Positions 35,924 through 51,306 of a DNA stretch of 64,000 nucleotides are shown here, piece after piece (position 1 is the first letter of the stretch; every line of letters begins with the position of its first letter). The notes beneath the pieces were generated by a model, which was given only the letters and a program-made list of their open reading frames with translations, did no database searches and was not told the origin of the DNA. The DNA is from Candidatus Thorarchaeota archaeon (lineage in GTDB: Archaea > Asgardarchaeota > Thorarchaeia > Thorarchaeales > Thorarchaeaceae). Location of the stretch: assembly GCA_963726195.1 (NCBI GenBank), contig CAVSBO010000003.1:480001-544000 (forward strand), read 5' to 3'. The translations under genes and the position numbers were made by a program.

Positions 35924-36190
35924 GTCGACCCTGAAGTCCTAGTAGCTCGTCGTGGTACCTCAACGTATTTCACCAGACACGACTGCTCTGCGCATTCCTT
36001 CGCGCTTCAATCTTTCCTCAAGGGAGAAGGAATCAGGAGTATTGACTAGGTCTCGATGATGCGCTACCAAGCCAACTCAACTGGCTCTGCTTGTGGATAT
36101 GTGACAAGAAACCTTTTTTTCCTCGAGTTCCCACCCTCGCTGACAAGGAGAAGGCATAAGCTCCTCACGGATGTGCAAATGATGCCCGCA

Positions 36191-36490
36191 ATGCCCAAGC
36201 GTGAAATTTTCGAGAGGATTATCCAGAACATCACCTCTAAGTTCCCGGATGTGTACGCGGCACTCTTCATCAGCCCGGAGGGCTTCACAATTAACACTTG
36301 GGGACTGACTGCGGAACGCTCAGAGGAGGTCTCTGCACTCTTGGGGGCCCTAATTGGGAAGACCAAGGAATTCATCGGGCAGATGTTCAAGGAAGGGCAG
36401 CTTCAATTCATTCAAGTCCAGACATCCTTAGGCGGCGTTCGAATCGCGCCCCAAGAGGAATTCATTCTTGTGACTCTGACCCACACGTAG
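36191..36490 (+). CDS. Roadblock/LC7 domain protein
   Basis: ~100 aa; helix-V.AA.FISPEG..I-helix(SAL)-beta pattern typical of Roadblock/MglB. Confidence 0.85.
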   Translation: MPKREIFERIIQNITSKFPDVYAALFISPEGFTINTWGLTAERSEEVSALLGALIGKTKEFIGQMFKEGQLQFIQVQTSLGGVRIAPQEEFILVTLTHT

Positions 36491-39419: not shown

Positions 39420-40234
39420 GATGGTCAGCCATGGAGAGACAAATCCCATCGTCTGGAACTGCAGAGAAGACTGAAACCGCGAACCCGGTTATAGGAGTCA
39501 TTGAAAGAGGGCTTGCCCTCCTCACTTTATTTGTCACTGGTTTTCTAAAGGATAGAAAGGGCCAGCTCCTTGTCTTCTTGGGCCTATTGCCAGTGGTCCT
39601 TGTCGTTGTCACAAATGTCGTGCCGAGCCTGTCCTACCCAGCGGGACTGCTGTACTTAGACATTATCCGCCTCGTGTACGCAACCTTGTTGGTACCGTTG
39701 TTTGGGCTATTGCTTGGCACTGCGGCGGTGAACGAGGAAATAGAATCGCATACCATCATGCAGTTAGTTTCTAGGCCTGTGAGGCGCGTCGAAATAGTGT
39801 TCTGGCGGTATATATCCACAATAGTCGCAAGCGCCTTCGCCGCGTTTCTTGCCACTGGTGTTATGTACATCTGGTTCGATATTGTCGCAGGTATCGATAT
39901 CGGGCTACTGGTGGGTTCGTGGACTTTCTTGACCGTCTGCAGTTCTGTTTACTGTGGAATTTTCATGTTGCTCGGCATCGCATTAGCAAAGCCATTGTTC
40001 TGGGGAGTGCTGGTGGTACTCTATGAAGAGCTCCTAGGCGCAATCTTCTCATTCATCGGCGGTCTCCCGTACTCTCTCTCTGCTCACATGAGCAACATGG
40101 GAAACATCTTCCTCCCGTTCAACTATCATATTTCTGGCTGGGACCCGGCATCATCGGTTGTCGTCCTAGTTGTCATTCTTGTAGGATCCCTCGTGATAGC
40201 GGCATTCCTGTTTCACCGTAAGGACCTATCATAA
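39416..40234 (+). CDS. ABC-2 type permease
   Basis: EEIESHT...SRPV.R.EI motif, 6 TM. Confidence 0.88.
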   Translation: MRWSAMERQIPSSGTAEKTETANPVIGVIERGLALLTLFVTGFLKDRKGQLLVFLGLLPVVLVVVTNVVPSLSYPAGLLYLDIIRLVYATLLVPLFGLLLGTAAVNEEIESHTIMQLVSRPVRRVEIVFWRYISTIVASAFAAFLATGVMYIWFDIVAGIDIGLLVGSWTFLTVCSSVYCGIFMLLGIALAKPLFWGVLVVLYEELLGAIFSFIGGLPYSLSAHMSNMGNIFLPFNYHISGWDPASSVVVLVVILVGSLVIAAFLFHRKDLS

Positions 40235-40471
40235 ACGAAGCTCATCGCGATGTACAGAGAGAGGAACCAGATTTCGTGGCAAGTCAATATAAGCCAGCGA
40301 TCTCGTACGGTCGACAAATTCTGGAGCACAATCAAACAAGATTGACAATTGGTTGACCGGAGCGCACCGTGTCTTAGTGCTGTTTTTATATCGGTCAGAG
40401 CGACAGAATCATAACCATATCCTTGATTTACTCGCGCGAGGATACCCAAGCACCTGAGGGAGGCAATCAAA

Positions 40472-41521
40472 ATCCCAAAAGATAAGGACTCTGAAGATAA
40501 CGCGGACGCAGACTACGAGCAATTCGAAGGCGAAGCTCCAACAAAGGAAGCTGTCGGGCAACCAGACAGCGGGGCAAGCGTCACTGGTCTCGACATGACT
40601 GACCTTCCGGGTGTCGGCCCGGCCATTGCTAAACGCCTCTTGGAAGCGGGCTACAGAAGCGTCGAGGCCATTGCAGTAGCATCTCCTCCCGAACTCGCCG
40701 CAGCAGGCTCGATAGGCGAAACCACCGCGACAAAGATAATCAAGGCGGCAAGAGAGATGCTGGACATCGGGTTCGAGACCGCCGACTTGTGTCTAGAACG
40801 CCGAAAAAACGCAGGCCGAATCACAACCGGGTCAAAAGCACTTGACGACTTGCTGGGTGGAGGTATAGAGACCCAAGGCATCACTGAAATGTATGGCTCG
40901 TTTCGATCCGGAAAGACACAGATTGCTCACCAGCTCTCGGTGAACATTCAGCTTCCCCCCGACAAGGGAGGGTTGGGTGGAACTGCAATCTACATTGACA
41001 CAGAAGGTACATTCAGACCTGAACGTCTTGTCGACATGGCAGAAGCTCTGGGCCTAAACATAGAAACAGTCCTGAAGAATGTGGTATGGGCACGGGCTTA
41101 CAACTCCGACCATCAGATACTGCTATGTGATCAAGCCATGGAAATGGCTCAGGAAAAAAACGCAAAGCTCCTGGTGTTGGATTCAGTAACGAGCCACTTC
41201 AGGGCAGAGTATACGGGAAGAGGTACCCTCGCCCCGAGACAGCAGAAACTGAACAAGCATCTCCACCATCTGCAGAGAGGTGCGGAAATCAACAATATGG
41301 CAGTGTACATCACGAATCAGGTGATGTCGCGTCCAGATGCATTCTTTGGGGACCCGACCGCGCCCGTCGGTGGTCACGTCTTGGCACATGTCCCGCAAGT
41401 GCGCTGTTACATACGGAAGTCTAAGGGTGAACGAAGAATCTCCCGCCTAGTTGACTCGCCAAACCTGCCCGAAGGCGAAGCTGTCTTCACTGTTGTGAAA
41501 GATGGCATCAGAAACGTCTAG
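40472..41521 (+). CDS. radA: DNA repair and recombination protein RadA
   Basis: N-terminal Hh[44 protein letters not shown]; frame is open 41 codons upstream of ATG 40595, back to an ATC following GAGGGAGG. Confidence 0.97.
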
Positions 41522-41571
41522 CCCATCGTGAACTCGCCGCCGCTACCAGTGTATCACCACGCTGATTCCGT

Positions 41572-42927
41572 TCAGCTGAAGTGAGCATCATCCAGAATCG
41601 CCGCCACCTCGCGGCACCAGGTGTCGAATAACTCAGGTCGTGCTGGATATTCGGCATATGCCTTGCTCACTTTCTTCATGATGCTCGCTGCCCTCTGAAG
41701 TTTAACCAGGAGACCGGGCCGCCCGGCAGACCTTTTGACTCTCCGCAGCTTGTCGACCAAGCCAATCGATAGGCCATCGCCCCGGTTCGCGCGCATGAGA
41801 TCCTCTGGCTCAAGCACGCGTCTCTCAAAGCCGAAATCGATCTCCTCGTCGCTGACATCCTGAAGGAATCTGCGAAAGATCTCAAGAGAAGCAAGACGCC
41901 TTCCAAAGTCTGATAGATACGTCGTATTATATTGCCAAAGTCCTCTTGCTGATGTGTCCTCTCTCGCTATGGCCTGCTTGGCAATTTCACCAAGAATCAC
42001 TCCTGCACGCATGCCTGCTCCAATTCCTCCTCCATGAATAGGATTCACTTGAAGAGCTGAATCCCCAACAAAGGCAATTCCGTCGGCCACCAAGCTCATC
42101 AGTGGACGCCTTACTGGCACTGCGCCACCTGCGCTCTCGATGATGTCGCTGCCATGAAAAACCTCGACACGCTCTTTGAAGCTCGACAGATAGGACTTGG
42201 GAGACGCCTTACCTTCACCGCCGGTTACTCCGACTCCCACATTTGCTTCCTGCGGTCCCCTTGGAAACAACCAAGCATAACCCGACGGCGCGACTCTTCT
42301 TCCTAAGAATACTCGGGCAATGTTTGCCTCGGGAAGGGGCTCTTTAAGGTGCAGAATCTCCCGGTGACAGAGGGCAATATCACCTTTGGCAACTCGCTTT
42401 TCAACCAGCGGATGGTCGAGCTTGGCCCTGATCACTCCAGCTAGGCCTGATGCATCAACTACAAGCTTGGCTTGAACTGTCTCAGTCTCACCTGCTTCTC
42501 CGCTCTTGTACACCACGCCGACAACTTGATCGTCCTTGGTCATCGGACCGGTCACGTGACACTCGGGGAGAAAAGTCACTCCAGCCTGAATCGCTTCATT
42601 CAGCAGACGTTGGCCGAAGTTCAGCCGATGCAGTATCCAGCCGTCAAATTCCTTCCAACCTCTGACCTTCATTTCGTTCACTATGCCAGGAGGATAGATA
42701 TCGGCACCGTCGATGGTATTCAGAATCTCCGCATCTTGCGGATAGTCAATCCCTGTGGCGTCGAAGTGCGACCTGCTTACCTCATCTCCGCAAACCTTCT
42801 GCCCGACAAGCTCTCTTGGCTTTCTATCAATCATCAGTGTCTTGAGGCCCAGCTCTGCACATCTGCGAGCGGCTGCACAACCCGCAGACCCCGCACCGAC
42901 TACTACTACATCCACGGTCGTGTTCAT
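41572..42927 (-). CDS. Geranylgeranyl reductase family (digeranylgeranylglycerophospholipid reductase-like)
   Basis: VGAGSAG, KVCG, PSGYAWLFP, GDSA..VNPIHGGGI. Confidence 0.9.
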   Translation of the reverse strand: MNTTVDVVVVGAGSAGCAAARRCAELGLKTLMIDRKPRELVGQKVCGDEVSRSHFDATGIDYPQDAEILNTIDGADIYPPGIVNEMKVRGWKEFDGWILHRLNFGQRLLNEAIQAGVTFLPECHVTGPMTKDDQVVGVVYKSGEAGETETVQAKLVVDASGLAGVIRAKLDHPLVEKRVAKGDIALCHREILHLKEPLPEANIARVFLGRRVAPSGYAWLFPRGPQEANVGVGVTGGEGKASPKSYLSSFKERVEVFHGSDIIESAGGAVPVRRPLMSLVADGIAFVGDSALQVNPIHGGGIGAGMRAGVILGEIAKQAIAREDTSARGLWQYNTTYLSDFGRRLASLEIFRRFLQDVSDEEIDFGFERRVLEPEDLMRANRGDGLSIGLVDKLRRVKRSAGRPGLLVKLQRAASIMKKVSKAYAEYPARPELFDTWCREVAAILDDAHFS

Positions 42928-43051
42928 CGCAGAACGACGGAACGTACCAACGATATAAACTCCGACCTAAGCACATCTTTTGCTCCTGTTCCAACATACT
43001 CTCACGCTAGAACTACTCTAATGATGGGTACTCTAGTCTAGTGTTGGTCAG

Positions 43052-44227
43052 CTAAACGTGCTTGAACTCCACGACCACGACTGACACCATTGTGATAATG
43101 ACAATAAGGGCAATGACTGGGGGCATCCAGTTGAGGAAGACTGCGAAGTAATGCAGTATCGTGTGGGGGTCGAAGGCGATCACCAGCAAGTCTCCGTAGA
43201 TGAATAGGAAACCGTAGACCGCGAATATTGGATACAGGATAGGTCCTCCAGTAATCACGAGCAACAAGACAATCACTGCAAGCTTGCTCTTCGTTGGATC
43301 CAAGATCCTGAGAGGAATAAGCTCCTCGTCGCTGAAACGAAAATAGTAGCTCACCAAGAACGAAGGTGCCATGAATCTGATGAGCTCAAGGACTTGAATT
43401 CCGAGCTGAAGAGAAAGCAGCATGAATGTATGAACCAGCATGTACATGAGAAGGATGCTGTTCAGCAGCGGCTGTGACTCATTGTACACGCTAATGGCCT
43501 CGATGAGACCAATCAACACACAGAAATTCGTGAAGAACAGACCAACGTGACCAATAGCGCCTTTGATGTACTGAATATGCCTAGACATTGCTTTCACCAC
43601 TGACGCCCGCCAAGGAGCTGAGATTGTCTTGGACGGTCTCGTGGTATGTATACCTGACTGTACAGAATCGATTGCGGCAACCGGTCCAAGCTCGCGTTGT
43701 TTTTCCATGGCGCGCAATACCAATTCTGTGAACATCCTGTTGATGTTCTCGCCGGTCCTGACTGACGTCTCATAGTGCAGGACATCGAGCCATCTTTTAA
43801 CCATTAGCCCGGCTTCAGGCGGCACAAGGCGATCTGGCCTGTCGACCTTGTTCGCTACGACAGCAACTACGGCATTGGGACAAACCGTTATGAACTTAGT
43901 AAACCATTCACCAACATCTAGGAACGTCTGCGGCCTAGTTACATCATAGACAATAACTGCCATCGACGAGCCAGCCATGTACCTGCGCCTCAACTCATTG
44001 TAGGTGGGTTGACCGGCCAAGTCCCATAACACGATTCTTGCACTAATCTTGGACCCGTTGGGACCTTGGACCTCGACGGTCTTCAGGGCAAAAGTGGTAC
44101 CAATGGTTGCTATGTAGCGTTCATTGAAACTGTCCTCTGTGTATCTCTTGATACAGCTTGTTTTCCCCACGGCGCCGTCACCCAAGGCAACCAGCTTGAA
44201 CATGTGGGAAACCGGCTCAGAAGACAA
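43052..44227 (-). CDS. Rab-like small GTPase read in frame into a multi-TM membrane domain (possibly two genes; second ATG at 43588)
   Basis: G1 GDGAVGKT, G2 TIG, G3 WDLAGQ, G4 NKVD, G5 ETSV; then a ~40-aa linker and ~178 hydrophobic residues. Confidence 0.88.
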   Translation of the reverse strand: MSSEPVSHMFKLVALGDGAVGKTSCIKRYTEDSFNERYIATIGTTFALKTVEVQGPNGSKISARIVLWDLAGQPTYNELRRRYMAGSSMAVIVYDVTRPQTFLDVGEWFTKFITVCPNAVVAVVANKVDRPDRLVPPEAGLMVKRWLDVLHYETSVRTGENINRMFTELVLRAMEKQRELGPVAAIDSVQSGIHTTRPSKTISAPWRASVVKAMSRHIQYIKGAIGHVGLFFTNFCVLIGLIEAISVYNESQPLLNSILLMYMLVHTFMLLSLQLGIQVLELIRFMAPSFLVSYYFRFSDEELIPLRILDPTKSKLAVIVLLLVITGGPILYPIFAVYGFLFIYGDLLVIAFDPHTILHYFAVFLNWMPPVIALIVIITMVSVVVVEFKHV

Positions 44228-44402
44228 GTTTGATACTTCCTATAGAATATGCTGAACAATAACACGTACGGCTGAAGGCCATTTAACGATTCTAGAAAAA
44301 CCATATTGGTATATCTGGGAGATATGCCAACAACTGTCGGACAAATCCTTTTCTTGAGGATATTGCCCTCTAAGGACCGTTCAGGTGCAGTGATGAGCGC
44401 AT

Positions 44403-45047
44403 ATGGCTGAGCAGTTCCTAAGTCGATTGTCACAGATTGAAGCTAGCATTGCTTCACTAGGTGAGACTCTGAAACGCATGATCACGATTCTTACGTCAGT
44501 GACAGAAATAAAGTCAGAACTGAGAGTAACCAAGCAGGAGATACTCGACGCCGTGAGCAAACAAGCTCAAGCCCGTGCTCCTGCTGGATCTGACGAAACG
44601 AGCCGTGTGGTCAGGGAAGAGTTTCAGAGATTGGAGAGATCGCTTACAGAATCCATAGAACGACTTAGGACCGAGATTGCTGACTCCATTCGGAGCATTC
44701 AGACTGCTGCACCAGCATACGGCGGAGAAGCTCAGGCCGCCGCGGTGGCCACCTCGCCCGCAGCCAGCAGGGTGCCGGCAGACAAGGCTATGCAGGTGGC
44801 TGATGTCCTTCAGGGCATCATCGGATCACTCAAGATGGGTTGCATCGCGGGTGACGTTGTCCAGACATTGGCGGACTCGAAGACAGCCATCATGAAGATT
44901 GTGCCAAGCGACGCTGCCATGGTCAAGATTGACCGTTGGACAGGCATGATTGCAGCGTATCCTAAGCGAAACGAACTCCAAGCCAAGGATATACTAAAAC
45001 TCAAACAGGAAATCAAAGCTGAAATTGCCAAATACCAGCCAGCCTAG
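44403..45047 (+). CDS. Coiled-coil protein with C-terminal Vps28-CTD-like helical bundle
   Basis: Heptad-rich N-terminal half, Ala/Pro linker, C-terminal SLKM...A.D...KI..W...I......L....I..L pattern. Confidence 0.6.
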   Translation: MAEQFLSRLSQIEASIASLGETLKRMITILTSVTEIKSELRVTKQEILDAVSKQAQARAPAGSDETSRVVREEFQRLERSLTESIERLRTEIADSIRSIQTAAPAYGGEAQAAAVATSPAASRVPADKAMQVADVLQGIIGSLKMGCIAGDVVQTLADSKTAIMKIVPSDAAMVKIDRWTGMIAAYPKRNELQAKDILKLKQEIKAEIAKYQPA

Positions 45048-45061
45048 ACAGTGAAATCGCC

Positions 45062-45447
45062 CTAGCCGATTAGCTTCTTTGAGGCAATTACTCGCAAAAC
45101 GTCAGTTGATGTGACTATTCCAATAATATCGTTGCCCTCGATTACTGGTATGTGCCTCTTTCCACTCTGATGCATCAATGCTATGGCCTGTGCTAAATCT
45201 GCATCTGGCCTGATGGTAACTACGGGACTGCTCATTATGTCTTCTAGGGTCAGCCGATGGTAGACTCCCTCAGACAGTAGCTGCGCTGCTATGATATCTT
45301 TCTGCGTCACAAGCCCCGCAAGAACCTCATTCTTGGTGACAATCACACTGCCTACGTCTTCTACCGCCATGATCTGGCAGCTTCAACGACGGGAGTAGCC
45401 ACATCTGCTGTGACAATCACGGAGGTCATGAATTCCCTGACGCGCAT
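45062..45447 (-). CDS. CBS-pair domain protein, frameshift near 45375
   Basis: MRVREFMT...; VGSVIV, GLVT.KD, IMSSPV, IPVI, GIVT.TD. Confidence 0.9.
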
Positions 45448-45485
45448 GCTAACGCCTCTCAATAGTGATCATCATGAAGTACAGC

Positions 45486-46088
45486 TCACATTTTCGGTGT
45501 TCGTTCCGCAATTGCTTTGACCAACACGATTTGTGCTATATGCATGAAGACATCCGAGACAGCAGTACCCATCTTTGCCGATGTCTCGAAATACTCAGCT
45601 TGAAACCAGTTCTTGAGCATTATGCCAGGCTGCTGGGGAACCATCCTCTTTGATTCGAGGTCTATCTTGTTTGCACATATAATAGCAGGTGCGTCCGGAC
45701 AGACTTCGCGGAATGATTCATACCACGTATTCATTGCCATAAACGTCTCGGGACGCGTCACATCGTATACTATGATGGCTCCCGAAGCGCCCCTCATGAA
45801 TTGCCTTCTCAGTTCTCTGTACGTGGATTGTCCGCCCATGTCCCATATTATAAGACGCACAGCCCTGGAAACTCCCGACTTGTCGGAGACCCTTGCATCC
45901 TTTGTCGCGAAAGTAGTGCCCACAGTCTGCTTGTACTCATCATCAAAAGCGTTCTCAGTGTACCGGCGAAGCAGCGAAGTCTTTCCCACCGATGCTTCGC
46001 CCAGAAGTACAATCCTGAACTTGTAACCTTCGAAAGCAGAGTCATCTGTGGCACTCGGCCTACCAGTTCGACCCACTTTCTCAGTCAT
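45486..46088 (-). CDS. Rab-like small GTPase
   Basis: GEASVGKT, TVG, WDMGGQ, NKID, ETSAK; no C-terminal prenylation Cys. Confidence 0.93.
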   Translation of the reverse strand: MTEKVGRTGRPSATDDSAFEGYKFRIVLLGEASVGKTSLLRRYTENAFDDEYKQTVGTTFATKDARVSDKSGVSRAVRLIIWDMGGQSTYRELRRQFMRGASGAIIVYDVTRPETFMAMNTWYESFREVCPDAPAIICANKIDLESKRMVPQQPGIMLKNWFQAEYFETSAKMGTAVSDVFMHIAQIVLVKAIAERTPKM

Positions 46089-46241
46089 TATGCAGCTACT
46101 CCTAGTGCTTCTCGCATTCCGGTGTGAAGAAGACCCCTCGCCTGTGACCTTATATCTTTTCTCCGGTCAGAAGGCGACTTGGCGTCACCAAGCATCGTCA
46201 CGCACGACGGCGTGCACATGTTCGACCGCTCAATCAATGCA

Positions 46242-47900
46242 CTAGGGCAGCCGGAACTCGAAAGCTACCGTTGGGTTGCCAATCCCGAACTGGCTGAGCA
46301 CCTCGGGCGATACTTCACCGAAGGAACCAATTCGTGCTTGACCCAACAAGATGTCAGCGCTTCTTCCGTCCACAAATGACAGATTCTTGGCCGAGACAAA
46401 TCTGAACTTGCCATCAAGACCCAGGTTCCTTAGCACGAATGTGAGCTCTGTGATCATGTTCGTCAGATTAACACGACCGTCCGACACCAGCCCACAAACT
46501 GATGTTATCTGTGCAGAGCGGGTCTCCGATCCTTCTTCCGGACTGATAACATCACCCACCTCGAATATCCTATGCGGGTAGTCCGCGTGCTGGTTCTGGC
46601 TTGTGAAGTCGAGGAGGGCAGGAAGCAGAGAGTTGCGAAGAATCGAGTAGTCTAGGCTCTTTGGATTACCGGTTGTAACAAGCTGGCTGTCTCGCATCAT
46701 CTTGGAGTTCATGATATCTGGCGAACTCATTACGTAGGTCATCACTTCTTGGTAACCAACTCCCACCAGCAAGTCACGAGCTTTGTTCTTCAACCGTGTC
46801 TTTGGGAGTAAGCGCCCGGCCGTCGTTGTGAGAGGCATCGTAGGCTGTATCTTATCGAATCCGTACCCAATTGCGACGTCCTCCATTACGTCGACACCGT
46901 GGAGTATGTCGGTCCTGAACGGGGGAACTTCCACTGCTACCTTTCCCTTGCTGGTCACCTTGGCTCCGTAGCACATCCTCTTCAGACAGTCAACAACGTC
47001 TTGGTCCTCAAGCTTGAGTCCGGTCAGTTGCACAACATCATCAGTTGTTACAACCATCTTCTCAGGCCTCAAATCGGGTGTTTCCGTTTCGGTCCCGTCG
47101 GGGTACACTACTGTCACTGACTCTATCTTGCCACCTCTATCAGCGACAGACGTAAGAACTATGTTGAGCGCTTGGTCCACGCATGACTTCTGAGTTCCGG
47201 TGACCTCGACGAAAATGTCGTGAATTTCGACAGTGAGGCGGCCCAAGTCATTGCTGTTGATGACAGGCGGGAGGCTCAAGATTTGATCCTTCGAGTCCTT
47301 CAGAACAGGCCATTTCTTGAAGCCTGATATGATGGGACCGTAAAGCAGCCCCTTCTCGTGTGTCTTGAGAATAGTCGGACCATCGATTGCAACATCTTGA
47401 CCCAAGGGGGCAAACTTGATTGACTCCGGCTTCTCAGGTGCGTATATCACCGGGAACTCTATGTCATTCAACACATAGAGCCCGATGCTTGCCTTCTTCC
47501 TGTTTCTGCCATGAGTCGTTGTGAGGAGTTCTTGAAGATGCATGTAGTCCTTCAGGAGGTCATCACTCATTTGAACGCCCTTGACAATGCCGCAGGAAAT
47601 GAGTGGCCTGACTTTCTCCAGCCCGGGCTTCACGATAACTTGCTTTCCTGACTTCCTAACCAAGAAAGTCTTGAGTCCCGTCTCAATGCCCAGGAATGCT
47701 TTGATTGTCCTTGCGATTCCCTCAGCCGAGAGCATATCCTGCCTATCGGGATTGACTTCGACTTCTATGATGTTCCCCTCAAGTTTCTCTATCTCGACTT
47801 TGAGAAGGAATAGTGTTTCTTCGAGCTTCTGCGTTGTCAGTCTCTGACCAATCAGCTGGAGCAAGTCGTCTAGTCTGCATTCAACTATCACTGCACTCAC
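46242..47900 (-). CDS. pheT: Phenylalanine--tRNA ligase beta subunit
   Basis: EVNPDRQDMLS.EG.AR, SLPPVINS, R.DILH..D..ED.AI.YG; GTG start overlaps the pheS stop. Confidence 0.95.
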   Translation of the reverse strand: MSAVIVECRLDDLLQLIGQRLTTQKLEETLFLLKVEIEKLEGNIIEVEVNPDRQDMLSAEGIARTIKAFLGIETGLKTFLVRKSGKQVIVKPGLEKVRPLISCGIVKGVQMSDDLLKDYMHLQELLTTTHGRNRKKASIGLYVLNDIEFPVIYAPEKPESIKFAPLGQDVAIDGPTILKTHEKGLLYGPIISGFKKWPVLKDSKDQILSLPPVINSNDLGRLTVEIHDIFVEVTGTQKSCVDQALNIVLTSVADRGGKIESVTVVYPDGTETETPDLRPEKMVVTTDDVVQLTGLKLEDQDVVDCLKRMCYGAKVTSKGKVAVEVPPFRTDILHGVDVMEDVAIGYGFDKIQPTMPLTTTAGRLLPKTRLKNKARDLLVGVGYQEVMTYVMSSPDIMNSKMMRDSQLVTTGNPKSLDYSILRNSLLPALLDFTSQNQHADYPHRIFEVGDVISPEEGSETRSAQITSVCGLVSDGRVNLTNMITELTFVLRNLGLDGKFRFVSAKNLSFVDGRSADILLGQARIGSFGEVSPEVLSQFGIGNPTVAFEFRLP

Positions 47901-49406
47901 CTCACGAAGTACTGTCGACGAAGCCAGCTCAGATCTTTTGACAGGACTTCTCGTATGTCGGATATCTGCATGGACGCCATGTACAGCCTCATGGCACCTA
48001 TTCCCCAAGCTCAGGACTGGATCCTTGAGTCCAAGTGGCCGGGTCACCTCGGGTCGAAAGATTCCTCCAGGCGCCACTTCAAACCAACCGAGGGTCTCAT
48101 GTTTAGCGAAGACCTCAACGCTTGGCTCCGTGAACGGGAATTGACCTGGCTTGAACTTCAGCTTCTCCACGCCAACCCTTCTGCATATCTCGCTTAGATA
48201 GCCCATCAAGTCTCGGAGAGTCAGACCTTTGTCCATGATGATGCCCTCGCACTGGTCGAACTCCTGTGCATGTCGTGGGTTTATCTTCTCGGCCCTGAAG
48301 TTTCTGTCAACGATGAACATCTTCTGGGGAGATTCCCGATGCTGGCTGAGAAACCTAACCGAGACAGGCGTGGTGTGAGAGCGAAGGCAAAGTCTAGATG
48401 ATACCTCATTGCTAAATGGCCATTCCCAACCTTTAGACCCGGTGTCACCTCCGTTCTCATGGACTGCCTTAACCAGAGAGTAGTATCCCTTGTCAAGGAT
48501 TAGGCCGTGATCGAAGGGTTGTGTAACGCGAAATTGATCTTGGACCTCTCTGGCCACATGGTCCTGCGGCACGAACAGTACATCATTGTTCCAAAACTCG
48601 GTCTCAACGTAGGGTCCGTACCATTCGGAGAATCCAAGCCCGACGAGAATCTCCCTGAGCCAGTCTGTGAACTCTGCATAGGGATGCTTCTTGCCATAGT
48701 TGCAGGAAGGAGCCTCAATCTCCACATTGTAGGGTTTGAATGATTTGCCTCTCCAAGAGCCGCTTGCCAATATCTCTGGAGTCAGGTCTCCGATTCCTTC
48801 GTGCTCCTGTGCCAACAAATCCTGTGCAAGCTTCTGGCTCTCGCCCTTCACTTGCGACGCATAACTCTTGATGGTCTTGGGCGTGGCGAGAGACCTTTCG
48901 ATGGCTTGGTCGAGCGCTTTTCGAAGTTGCGGGGGAACTTGAGTTTGGCCGCCGTGGAGGAGACTCAGCACTTCAACAACCGGCGAAACGGCGTTCGTAG
49001 CAACGGTCTCTAGTATGGAGTCATTGCCAATCCGGGTTACCTTGACCCATCCGTTCCTTCGTGCCCAATTGACTGCTATCCCTTTCGACACTGGTGTGAG
49101 ACGTGCAGCGGTCACAGCCTTTTCTAGCTCGCTCTTTCCGCCCAGATTCTTGACCGAATTGAAGAGTCGTACCTCGGGCAGACCGTCGTTGACATAACCA
49201 CGACCCTCTTCTGTCAGGGAGAACACAGTGGACTCTTGAGTGTCGATGGTCACGAGACCCTTCGCGGCAAGCGACATCAATATGGAGACGATTCGTGGCT
49301 CGCTCTCACCTAGTTTCTCTGCGAGATTGGCCGCCTTGACTAGACTCTTTGCTGATATCAGTTCGGCAAGTACCGGTCGTTCGCCTTCTGTCAAGTGTTC
49401 GCTCAT
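47897..49406 (-). CDS. pheS: Phenylalanine--tRNA ligase alpha subunit, +1 indel near 48011
   Basis: GLPE, GKKHP, FVPQDH.ARE.QD, LRSHTT, FPFTEPS, GIFRPEV; the true end AWGIGAMRLYM...WLRRQYFVR* is in another frame. Confidence 0.95.
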
Positions 49407-49791
49407 ATGTGAACCAGAACTCCTAGCGACTTTCGCCAGTTATGCGAGTAGAAAACCCCACCAAGTCTATTCCCAACTGAGAAAAAGAATCCTATGAGAC
49501 CGCTGTGAATTGGCAGGGCCACATTCCTTTCGCACCTTTGATTCGGAGGTTGCCACTGACCCCTTTTTTAACCTTATCATGCTCCGGGCTTTCACGGCAC
49601 AGGAGGGAGCAAAGCACGCCGGGCTTGACTTCTCAGTTGGGCCAACCAATCGATGATTAATGCGCATTCAATAAGCCAGTTACATAACGTTAAAATAGAG
49701 TGCCCCTGCGACCTCTCTGTGAGCACTTGGATGCGTCTCCTTGTTCTTCGTGGTTCTGCCATCTGAGAAGGCAGGAAGTGGATGTCCATTG

Positions 49792-50877
49792 ATGGTTGAC
49801 CGATACCAACTGAAACGGAAACTCGCAGAACTCAAGGCATTCAAGGGTAGGCAAAGCTCATTCACAACTCTCACGATTCCTCCAAACAAGGCACTGGCGG
49901 ACGTGATTGGCTTCGTGAGGGCAGAACTCGCTGGATGTGAAAACATCAAGAGTAGGGTCAACAGAAGAAATGTTGCTGACAATCTGACAGCTATTCTGAG
50001 CGAGCTGACGAAGCGACAGTTTTCAGTCCCAGCGAATGGTATCGCATTCTTCTATGGAATCCAAGAGGCAGAGGGAGGAGGAACGGCTCAGGAAATCAGG
50101 GAAATCTTGGTACCTCCTGCTCCACTCACACAGTTCGTTTACATATGCGGCCGGGAGTTTGTGGTCGACGAACTGTTGGCGATGACCCAGCCAAAGAGCC
50201 TCATAGTAATTGTTTTGATCGAGGGAGGAAAGGTCACAGTTGGATACTTGCGCGGCAAGCATATGGAACTCGTACGCGACGAGGACTACTACATCATCGG
50301 AAAAACGAGAGCAGGCGGACAGAGTGCCAGAAGGTTCGAACACATTCGAGATGGATTGATGCTCGACTTCTTCAAACACGTTGGTCGTTTGCTGAACGAA
50401 CTGCTTCTGCCAAACATCGCGAACATTGATGCTATCGTCGTTGGTGGAAACACTATAAGGGCTCAGGAGTTCTTGGACAAGGGTGAGCTCGACTACCGTC
50501 TGAGACAGAAAGTGGCAGAGACCATAATCTCTGTGAGCCAAGTTGACGAGATAGGATTGTACGAGGCCATGAAAGAGGCGTCGAGAATCCTGAGGGAGAC
50601 AGAAATCTACGCGGAAAGACAGGCATGGGACAGCTTCCTTGAGAGCCTGATGAAAGGCTCATCAACAATAACGTACGGAAGGAAGGAAGTCTTGGAAGCC
50701 CTCAAGGGTGGTCGTGTTCAGAAACTGTTGATACTAGAAGACAGCCCTGATCTCACCGATGGCCTCATGCAGGAAGTCTCGAACTACAAAACAGAAATGC
50801 TGGTCTTCTCAAGTCAGACAGAATCAGGCTCGCAGCTACGCGGCTTTGGCGGCATCGCTGCGACGCTACGTTGGTAA
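49792..50877 (+). CDS. prf1: Peptide chain release factor aRF1/eRF1
   Basis: NIKS, YICGREF (YxCxxxF), GGQSARRF, C-terminal FGGIAATLR. Confidence 0.93.
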   Translation: MVDRYQLKRKLAELKAFKGRQSSFTTLTIPPNKALADVIGFVRAELAGCENIKSRVNRRNVADNLTAILSELTKRQFSVPANGIAFFYGIQEAEGGGTAQEIREILVPPAPLTQFVYICGREFVVDELLAMTQPKSLIVIVLIEGGKVTVGYLRGKHMELVRDEDYYIIGKTRAGGQSARRFEHIRDGLMLDFFKHVGRLLNELLLPNIANIDAIVVGGNTIRAQEFLDKGELDYRLRQKVAETIISVSQVDEIGLYEAMKEASRILRETEIYAERQAWDSFLESLMKGSSTITYGRKEVLEALKGGRVQKLLILEDSPDLTDGLMQEVSNYKTEMLVFSSQTESGSQLRGFGGIAATLRW

Positions 50878-50880
50878 TCA

Positions 50881-51306
50881 TCACTTTCTTTCTTGTCCTT
50901 GAGGCAGCTGAGGAAGCTTACTCAGGGTCTCGATGTCATTTGACCAACCGACTAGTTCCGTTGTAATGCCATTGATGTATTCCAAAAGAGACTGCTGGTA
51001 TTTGTGCATGTGCTCCTGTGCGAACTTCCTGTATCTGCTGGAGTAATCATGCACTCTTTCTGGCAAGCCAGTCGACCACATCTGCAGGACGAGCTCTGCT
51101 TTGCGATCCTGGAGAGCCTTCTGTGCTATCTTGGTATTACTGCATTTTGTCAGGAGATCCTCCAAGGATTTCTGCGTAGATATGGTCGCTGCCACGAGCT
51201 CCTTTGCGTCCGCCTTGGTGCTCTCATCTTTGGTTGAGTAATAGACCTGCTTCAACCGTCTCTTGCATTCCATAACACGGGCGAGAAAGCGCGCCAGTTC
51301 GTGCAT
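50881..51306 (-). CDS. Hypothetical all-helical protein
   Basis: ~141-aa charged helical ORF directly downstream of the Cas4-like genes. Confidence 0.65.
   Translation of the reverse strand: MHELARFLARVMECKRRLKQVYYSTKDESTKADAKELVAATISTQKSLEDLLTKCSNTKIAQKALQDRKAELVLQMWSTGLPERVHDYSSRYRKFAQEHMHKYQQSLLEYINGITTELVGWSNDIETLSKLPQLPQGQERK

Follow-up and report, generated by a model that had tools for sequence, protein, structure and literature searches.

A Rab-like GTPase gene paired with a small membrane-protein gene in Thorarchaeia: a candidate protein-based route to the membrane

Asgard archaea carry many Rab-like GTPases without eukaryotic lipid anchors, escort proteins or known receptors, and whether and by what route they come to membranes is an open question (PMC10933270). 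That question is raised again by a locus in a 64,000-nucleotide stretch of a Candidatus Thorarchaeota archaeon genome (hereafter the window; GenBank assembly GCA_963726195.1, contig CAVSBO010000003.1, positions 480,001 to 544,000), i.e., G000:C3:480001-544000 in our labelling of a source genome of 2.9 Mb in 19 contigs that is 88.9% complete. Flanked by RadA and geranylgeranyl reductase (GGR) genes on one side and by PheRS and aRF1 genes on the other, the locus holds two Rab-like GTPase genes (GTPase-A and GTPase-B), a gene for a small membrane protein (TM), a CBS-pair gene and a gene for a helical protein (CC214). A sequence-only reading of the window had joined these into one trafficking module. 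As a five-gene unit, this module is unproven, and only the pair of GTPase-A and TM has independent support, in the form of operon spacing, retention in a sister family and an independent fusion.

In the window as assembled, the GTPase-A and TM sequences form one open reading frame (ORF), and an unknown membrane domain had been noted downstream of the GTPase. The membrane part is real, but it is a separate gene rather than a domain: GTPase-A (~200 aa) and TM (178-182 aa) were found as separate adjacent ORFs in all 22 relatives first examined (22/22), on the same strand and 1-52 nt apart, and they were directly contiguous and uninterrupted in 59/59 of the loci holding both among 63 further loci from species-representative genomes. 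Moreover, the sister family, in which GTPase-B and the CBS gene are absent, keeps a GTPase and TM together. A search for longer forms returned one other fused protein, P0001 (374 aa, L144:803-1927), encoded on a Joint Genome Institute (JGI) metagenome contig (JGI 3300001371) with the same neighbours, PurA and GGR. As compared with G023 and G008, this fusion was made by a 35-nt deletion that took away the stop codon, spacer and start codon; its junction differs from that in the window, and sequencing errors do not make such a deletion. Against this one fused form, stand-alone TM forms at least 120 clusters; with homologues counted in, 173 stand-alone clusters were recovered, for which every source name shown is "hypothetical protein".

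Our preferred reading, which we hold to be somewhat on the probable side, is that GTPase-A is a nucleotide switch that is recruited to, or acts on, the co-encoded TM, with GTPase-B and the CBS gene as a second unit and CC214 as a neighbour. Specifically, a lineage-specific Rab-like GTPase gene situated among housekeeping genes would have been duplicated locally in the family ancestor, and the functional core would be the bicistronic arrangement of GTPase-A followed by a four-helix membrane protein of ~180 aa. TM might then serve as the membrane receptor, anchor or effector of GTPase-A, which would dock on the cytoplasmic N-terminus and the conserved cytoplasmic loop of TM, so that a nucleotide-dependent switch would act at the cell membrane. 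GTPase-B followed by the stand-alone CBS-pair gene would constitute a second probable transcription unit, and the involvement of CC214, divergently transcribed from GTPase-A, would be positional only. The coordinates of these features are given in Table 1.

Table 1. Features of the locus in window positions, and the Vps28 N-terminal domain (NTD)/EAP30 genes by genome and locus label.
Feature	Position	Strand	Description
GTPase + membrane ORF	43052-44227	-	391 aa, single ORF as assembled
GTPase-A	43622..44227	-	~202 aa Rab-like small GTPase
1-nt insertion site	43618..43622	-	TAG stop of relatives reads TCAG
TM (membrane-protein gene)	43052..43600	-	~180 aa, four long hydrophobic helices
GTPase-A/CC214 intergenic region	44228..44402	.	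175 bp, divergent
CC214	44403..45047	+	214 aa helical protein, Thorarchaeia-specific
CBS-pair gene	45062..45447	-	stand-alone; assembled ORF 45062-45370 = 102 aa
GTPase-B	45486..46088	-	200 aa Rab-like small GTPase; Pfam Ras match
Vps28-NTD/EAP30	G000:C13:104434-104679 (L110:7434-7679); G002 L111:6722-7459; G025 L112:5107-5904		

Both GTPases belong to the Ras superfamily, with a full G domain including the G1 P-loop, the G3 DxxGQ and the G4 NKxD motifs, and they matched Pfam Ras (PF00071) over model positions 1-160 with E-values of 1.8e-36 (GTPase-A) and 1.5e-44 (GTPase-B). A comparison of the four window proteins with NCBIfam gave only small_GTP and generic CBS matches. In GTPase-A, G1 reads GDGAVGKT, G3 WDLAGQ and G4 NKVD, and with G1-G4 intact the switch machinery is in place; the 23 aligned GTPase-A orthologues (alignment A6) have a mean column identity of 74%. 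The G5 motif reads SVR in the window (43757-43765, residues 155-157) vs. SAK in nearly all 22 orthologues. The Ala-to-Val position corresponds to Ras Ala146, and substitution at Ras Ala146 speeds nucleotide exchange, but the SVR in the window could equally be a sequence error.

That the two GTPases are paralogues, as the sequence-only reading held, is borne out by 44% identity over 160 aa and by the presence in both of all five motifs it had listed (GTTF, Y.ELRR..M.G, YDVTRP.TF, VCP.A and VP...G.M.K.W). Among the ~11 Ras-like genes of the genome, they are mutual closest paralogues. A maximum-likelihood tree was built from the orthologues of 15 genomes, the other paralogues of the source genome and GTPases from other Asgard families. 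In this tree, clade A (support 100/99) and clade B (96/92) were sisters (97/88), and the single TM-adjacent GTPase of the sister family (G025) was their outgroup (98/93). The inferred duplication thereby stands and, because the A and B clades are sisters with the sister-family GTPase as outgroup, it was local and took place in the family ancestor.

The nearest solved structure to GTPase-B is a Thorarchaeota Rab (7EZB, E 9.2e-36), and the 59 further PDB matches listed after it are all Rab/Ypt proteins (such as Rab3, Rab21, Rab7, Rab5 and Rab2; E 1e-30 to 1e-26), so that the solved structures nearest to it come from Rabs and not from Ras, Arf or Ran proteins. Prenylation cysteine motifs (CC, CxC or CAAX) were looked for and not found, and the C-terminal tails of the GTPase-A orthologues (A6) and of GTPase-B contain no cysteine. 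GTPase-A and GTPase-B consequently lack the C-terminal geranylgeranylation cysteine of a eukaryotic Rab in the strict sense. Most GTPase-A orthologues end in a short and conserved basic [KR]-P-[FS]-K-x-[TV] sequence located right before the stop codon and the TM gene (A6), and this C-terminal sequence may be a docking peptide.

For TM, the AlphaFold2 (AF2) model places helices at residues 2-39, 45-74, 106-138 and 145-181, with a predicted local distance difference test score (pLDDT) of 79.6. In an alignment of the family (A5), the N-terminus and a conserved YYF...LDPTKS loop carry the basic residues, and the other loops are acidic or neutral. By the positive-inside rule, and as the fusions also suggest, the N-terminus, the C-terminus and the YYF...LDPTKS loop would be cytoplasmic. 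No family could be assigned: TM matched none in Pfam, and its 23 orthologues share none at E<=10. In particular, the families of the PRA1 (PF03208) and Yip1 (PF04893) Rab receptors gave no match at C3:523052-523600 in a whole-genome profile search at E<=1, nor did any of the 23 TM orthologues match either of them in Pfam; a true Yip1 gene is located elsewhere in the genome, on contig C13. Comparison of the TM model with the PDB via Foldseek yielded a best E-value of 0.99, comparison with the ESM Atlas only TM-scores <0.5, and a language-model search a best score of 0.85, with no common Pfam family among the 30 nearest clusters.

The gene order around the pair is conserved across Thorarchaeia, and its non-conservation, which the sequence-only reading had named as grounds for abandoning its module, was not observed. 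Across 23 loci, there are few departures from the order RadA-GGR-(PurA)-TM-GTPase-A-CC214-CBS-GTPase-B-PheRS-aRF1; the starts of GTPase-A and CC214 are separated by 124-431 nt in 58/60 loci, and GTPase-B and the CBS gene are adjacent in 53 of the 63 further loci. The gene that intervenes between GGR and TM in other genera was considered as a candidate regulator and rejected, as it encodes adenylosuccinate synthetase (PurA).

Several points weigh against the proposed role of GTPase-A and TM. The housekeeping genes for RadA, GGR, PurA, PheRS and aRF1 are equally conserved within the same block, and so is, in the same genomes, an unrelated control locus (HerA-B3_4-HAD-par172-DHH-TPR, where par172 is a paralogue of CC214). 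Since both are equally syntenic, within-family synteny is not evidence of function, and the adjacency of GTPase-A and TM could partly be inheritance. Furthermore, the P0001 fusion is known from a single contig, of the five AF2 models of TM only one is confident, and a physical interaction of GTPase-A with TM is hypothetical; a complex prediction for GTPase-A (A6) with GTP, Mg and TM (A5) scored 0.00 in both runs, controls being absent, and speaks neither for nor against binding. Finally, TM homologues were found in six other Asgard families, in five of which no GTPase lies within 5 kb. In the sixth, a Ras GTPase is situated 1.4 kb from the TM homologue but is non-orthologous, with an aminotransferase gene in between. 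Because the TM homologues of other Asgard families have no orthologous GTPase as a neighbour, the TM family arose before it became associated with the GTPase, and its function does not depend on that association.

In the sixth family (f12, L131-L141), the TM homologue is convergent to the Ras-family GTPase, and the arrangement of TM homologue, aminotransferase and GTPase is kept in 10 fetched loci, nine from f12 genus g27 and one from g34. This GTPase was considered as an orthologue of GTPase-A or GTPase-B and rejected, as it groups with a different paralogue in the tree (with a long-branch caveat).

These points also feed the strongest rival explanation, i.e., that the GTPases, TM, CC214 and the CBS protein are each independent and merely neighbours by descent in a slowly rearranging region. 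The family-wide synteny of the block takes in unrelated housekeeping genes, the control locus behaves alike, and the TM homologues of other Asgard families adjoin GAPDH, ThyX, SepRS or MoaB genes without a GTPase. A complete lack of linkage nevertheless seems somewhat unlikely to us, given that the same-strand, 1-52 nt arrangement of GTPase-A and TM is unbroken in 59/59 loci, vs. insertions elsewhere in the block, and that the two have also been fused in frame independently.

A second rival concerns the fused ORF itself, in that a real 1-nt insertion might have produced a membrane-anchored Rab-like GTPase in this organism, which would be compatible with the function proposed above for GTPase-A and TM. 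The region from 40000 to 50900 was aligned at the DNA level with G002, and a further alignment (A1) was made against three same-genus genomes. Only three coding indels that are not multiples of three were present in this region, each of 1 nt, at ~43620, ~45375 and ~48012. The extra base at ~43620 converts the TAG stop codon of the relatives into TCAG and joins GTPase-A in frame to TM (A1). Near 45375, the CBS gene misses one base as compared with all relatives (alignment A2), and its frame is broken. Near 48012, a 1-nt insertion moves the reading from the PheRS alpha frame to the beta frame when ~40 codons of alpha are still to come, swapping the conserved GIG..RL (motif-3) end of alpha for out-of-frame residues. 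The resulting 1054-aa PheRS alpha-beta ORF (46242-49406, minus strand), for which the relatives have two genes, or one stop codon in between, is most probably an artefact. PheRS alpha, as an essential single-copy enzyme, could not be so broken, and the assembly must therefore be indel-prone. The Vps28-NTD/EAP30 gene of this genome (see below) is likewise shortened in comparison with that of G002, and was probably cut to 81 aa by another indel.

In favour of a genuine fusion, the one added base abolishes the stop codon and at once brings the reading into the TM frame, without a stop on the way, the inserted C is situated between a T and an A rather than in a homopolymer run, where sequencing indels usually occur, and another lineage reached the same fusion via its 35-nt deletion, indicating that a fused form is viable. 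On the other hand, two more 1-nt indels lie within 4.4 kb (in PheRS alpha and the CBS gene) and another gene is truncated elsewhere, in line with an indel-prone assembly, and GTPase-A and TM are separate genes in the closest relative (92% protein identity). A genuine fusion in this organism is thus unlikely in our estimation, and the in-frame GTPase-TM fusion, the CBS truncation and the 1054-aa PheRS ORF are most probably all 1-nt assembly errors, judging from the alignments. Programmed readthrough or frameshifting as the source of the GTPase-TM fusion was rejected, as both the frame relation and the spacer vary among relatives.

For the CBS gene, the sequence-only reading of a CBS sensor is upheld in part. 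The two tandem CBS motifs are real (Pfam CBS, PF00571, E 6.7e-21, in two stretches), but the assembled 102-aa ORF is only the 3′ part of the gene. Intact ORFs in 20 relatives are 134-148 aa long, and the window gene is expected to span ~128-134 aa from the ATG at 45447, with the upstream ATG in a different frame. Its two CBS motifs and a length of ~134 aa are those of stand-alone archaeal and bacterial CBS-pair proteins, from which the window gene differs in being broken by an indel. GTPase-B lies 38 nt upstream of the CBS start. The CBS gene is absent in G014 as well as in the sister family.

The CC214 gene is oriented as described before, i.e., divergent from GTPase-A and convergent on the CBS gene, and the 175-bp divergent region contains AT-rich boxes that, on a reading of the sequence only, are candidate archaeal TATA elements. 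CC214 is confined to Thorarchaeia: all genomes of the same family (24/24) and the single one of the sister family (1/1) carry it, and it was not found in any of the genomes searched from other Asgard families (0/15). In two genomes, its surroundings differ. In G024 (L023:3393-5894), two genes lie between GTPase-A and CC214, one of the SPFH/Band 7 kind and one for an unknown protein of 320 aa, and in G005 (L020:6933-8087), a phage-type integrase replaces GTPase-A/TM beside CC214, with an HNH and an AlaX-like gene beside the CBS gene.

According to its AF2 model (pLDDT 78.9 overall, >90 in the C-terminal domain), the N-terminal part of CC214 forms a helical hairpin (residues 2-57 and 65-101), a disordered linker that is rich in Ala and Pro and varies in length follows (alignment A3), and the C-terminal part folds into a four-helix bundle (residues 126-209, window 44778-45029). 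It had been called Vps28-like, and at the level of the fold of residues 126-209 this label has merit. In a Foldseek search, the top matches were C-terminal domains of Vps28 (2j9w, 2j9v and 2g3k), with E 0.07-0.4, probability 0.98-1.0 and target TM-scores of 0.67-0.70, and the VIA exhaustive structural alignment gave a Z of 10.0 to 2j9u, with a root-mean-square deviation of 3.2 Å over 91 residues. This Z is below the level where helical bundles become specific; it is matched by that for a designed bundle (Z 10.1) and exceeds that for the histidine phosphotransfer (HPt) domain of CheA only slightly (Z 9.1). The CC214 bundle shares with the Vps28 C-terminal domain (2J9U, 2J9W, 2J9V and 2G3K) its up-down four-helix architecture, its size of ~90 residues and its C-terminal position after a helical N-terminal region and a flexible linker.

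Homology at the sequence level, in contrast, went undetected. CC214 had no match at E<=0.1 in Pfam, including VPS28 (PF03997), and PDB sequence searches, run with the single sequence and with profiles, brought up nothing but noise, such as apolipoproteins and designed helices. Comparison via hhalign of CC214 (A3) with Asgard Vps28 (A4) gave a probability of 0.35%, and that of a C-terminal-domain profile including par172 (A8) with A4 gave 2.6% (E 0.018), in an alignment that runs co-linearly along 77 C-terminal-domain columns and pairs the conserved Trp. When the C-terminal-domain profile was run against 1.84 billion proteins, only CC214, par172 and repeat noise were recovered, and no Vps28; the long repeat proteins P0023, P0029 and P0030 that it matched were rejected as TPR/coiled-coil noise. 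Moreover, CC214 has a different helical hairpin in the place of the Vps28 N-terminal core domain and its motif, and its neighbours are GTPase, CBS, PheRS and GGR genes rather than a gene cluster of the ESCRT machinery. "Vps28-CTD-like" (with CTD for C-terminal domain) fairly describes the predicted fold, and does not establish homology.

In the genome-wide search, PF03997 hit another gene than CC214, located on contig C13. Most Asgard families have a canonical Vps28, but in Thorarchaeia only its N-terminal part matches, weakly, within a protein fused to EAP30/Vps36. This Thorarchaeia protein of 245-265 aa joins a segment like the Vps28 N-terminus to an EAP30/Vps36 (ESCRT-II) domain, without the Vps28 C-terminal bundle, and its location on another contig sets it apart from CC214. 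The paralogue par172 (172 aa; G000:C4:320087-320605, L036:7087-7605) has an N-terminal helix and the C-terminal bundle in common with CC214 and, in 10 genomes, is always located upstream of a DHH/RecJ-like gene, inside the HerA-B3_4-HAD...TPR block.

These results bear on the full module, in which the two GTPases, TM, the CBS protein and CC214, the last in the role of a Vps28-like adaptor, would form one GTPase-regulated membrane-remodelling or sorting system and, speculatively, adenylate binding to the CBS pair would tune it. Most Thorarchaeial loci do have the five genes in one contiguous run, CC214 shares its narrow phyletic range (family f1 and sister family f2) with the A/B GTPase clade, and the trio of CC214, GTPase and TM occurs together in the sister family. 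Moreover, the Vps28 C-terminal domain is the best natural fold match of the CC214 C-terminal domain, and the 77-column hhalign alignment adds a co-linear match to it. The module is nonetheless quite improbable in view of the equal synteny of the housekeeping neighbours and the control locus, the tolerated insertions between CC214 and its neighbours in G024 and G005, and the missing CBS gene in G014 and the sister family. Furthermore, par172 is linked to a DHH/RecJ-like gene and not to GTPases, the Vps28 fold match ties with those of the designed bundle and the CheA HPt domain, the hhalign probabilities are only 0.35-2.6%, and the search of 1.84 billion proteins reached no Vps28. The link of CC214 and of the CBS protein to the GTPases is positional.

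The most far-reaching proposal, that GTPase-A and TM represent a protein-based anchoring of Rab-like GTPases that predates prenylation and is functionally analogous to a Rab with its PRA1/Yip receptor and that, jointly, CC214/par172 is a detached, highly diverged Vps28 C-terminal domain coupling the GTPase switch to the ESCRT machinery in Thorarchaeia, whose Vps28 N-terminal domain is fused to an EAP30/ESCRT-II domain, is speculative and very unlikely as a whole.

Further from the locus, a roadblock/LC7 domain gene (window 36056-36490, plus strand; Pfam E 2.1e-08) lies 7 kb from GTPase-A and is possibly a candidate GTPase regulator, though the genome has 15 roadblock genes in all. Its homologue on the JGI contig L144 adjoins a 354-aa gene in the RadA position, the identity of the 354-aa gene as RadA being suggested by that position.

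Compared with known systems, the Rab-like GTPases of Asgard archaea and their missing lipid anchors are already known. Thor-Rab (PDB 7EZB; Tran et al. 2024) has no prenylatable cysteines, and Asgard searches found neither a Rab escort protein nor a geranylgeranyl transferase, as stated in PMC10933270. GTPase-A and GTPase-B have in common with Thor-Rab a Ras core, Rab-family-like switch and interswitch motifs and a short tail without a C-terminal prenylatable Cys. They differ from it in that Thor-Rab is another paralogue, whereas GTPase-A and GTPase-B are a Thorarchaeia-specific sister pair, and in that GTPase-A lies directly upstream of a membrane-protein gene, a context that was not found described in the accessible text of PMC10933270.

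The PRA1/Yip3 and Yip1 Rab receptors offer a likeness by analogy only, i.e., a small GTPase combined with a four-helix membrane protein of ~180 aa with (predicted) cytoplasmic termini that would give GTPase-A a route to the membrane. In contrast to these receptors, TM matches neither PF03208 nor PF04893, and the route of GTPase-A would involve no prenyl group. In the literature searched, neither the pairing of GTPase-A with an unannotated membrane family nor its independent fusion was found.

Two cautions follow for work on comparable loci: synteny within the Thorarchaeia family is too conserved to indicate function, and 1-nt indels of the assembly create false fusions and truncations. With these in mind, the strictly conserved bicistronic arrangement that joins one Rab-like GTPase to a small polytopic membrane protein, with at least one natural fusion of the two, provides a concrete, cheaply testable hypothesis of recruitment by a protein receptor, and the GTPase-A/TM pair may show how Asgard GTPases that lack a lipid anchor reach the membrane.

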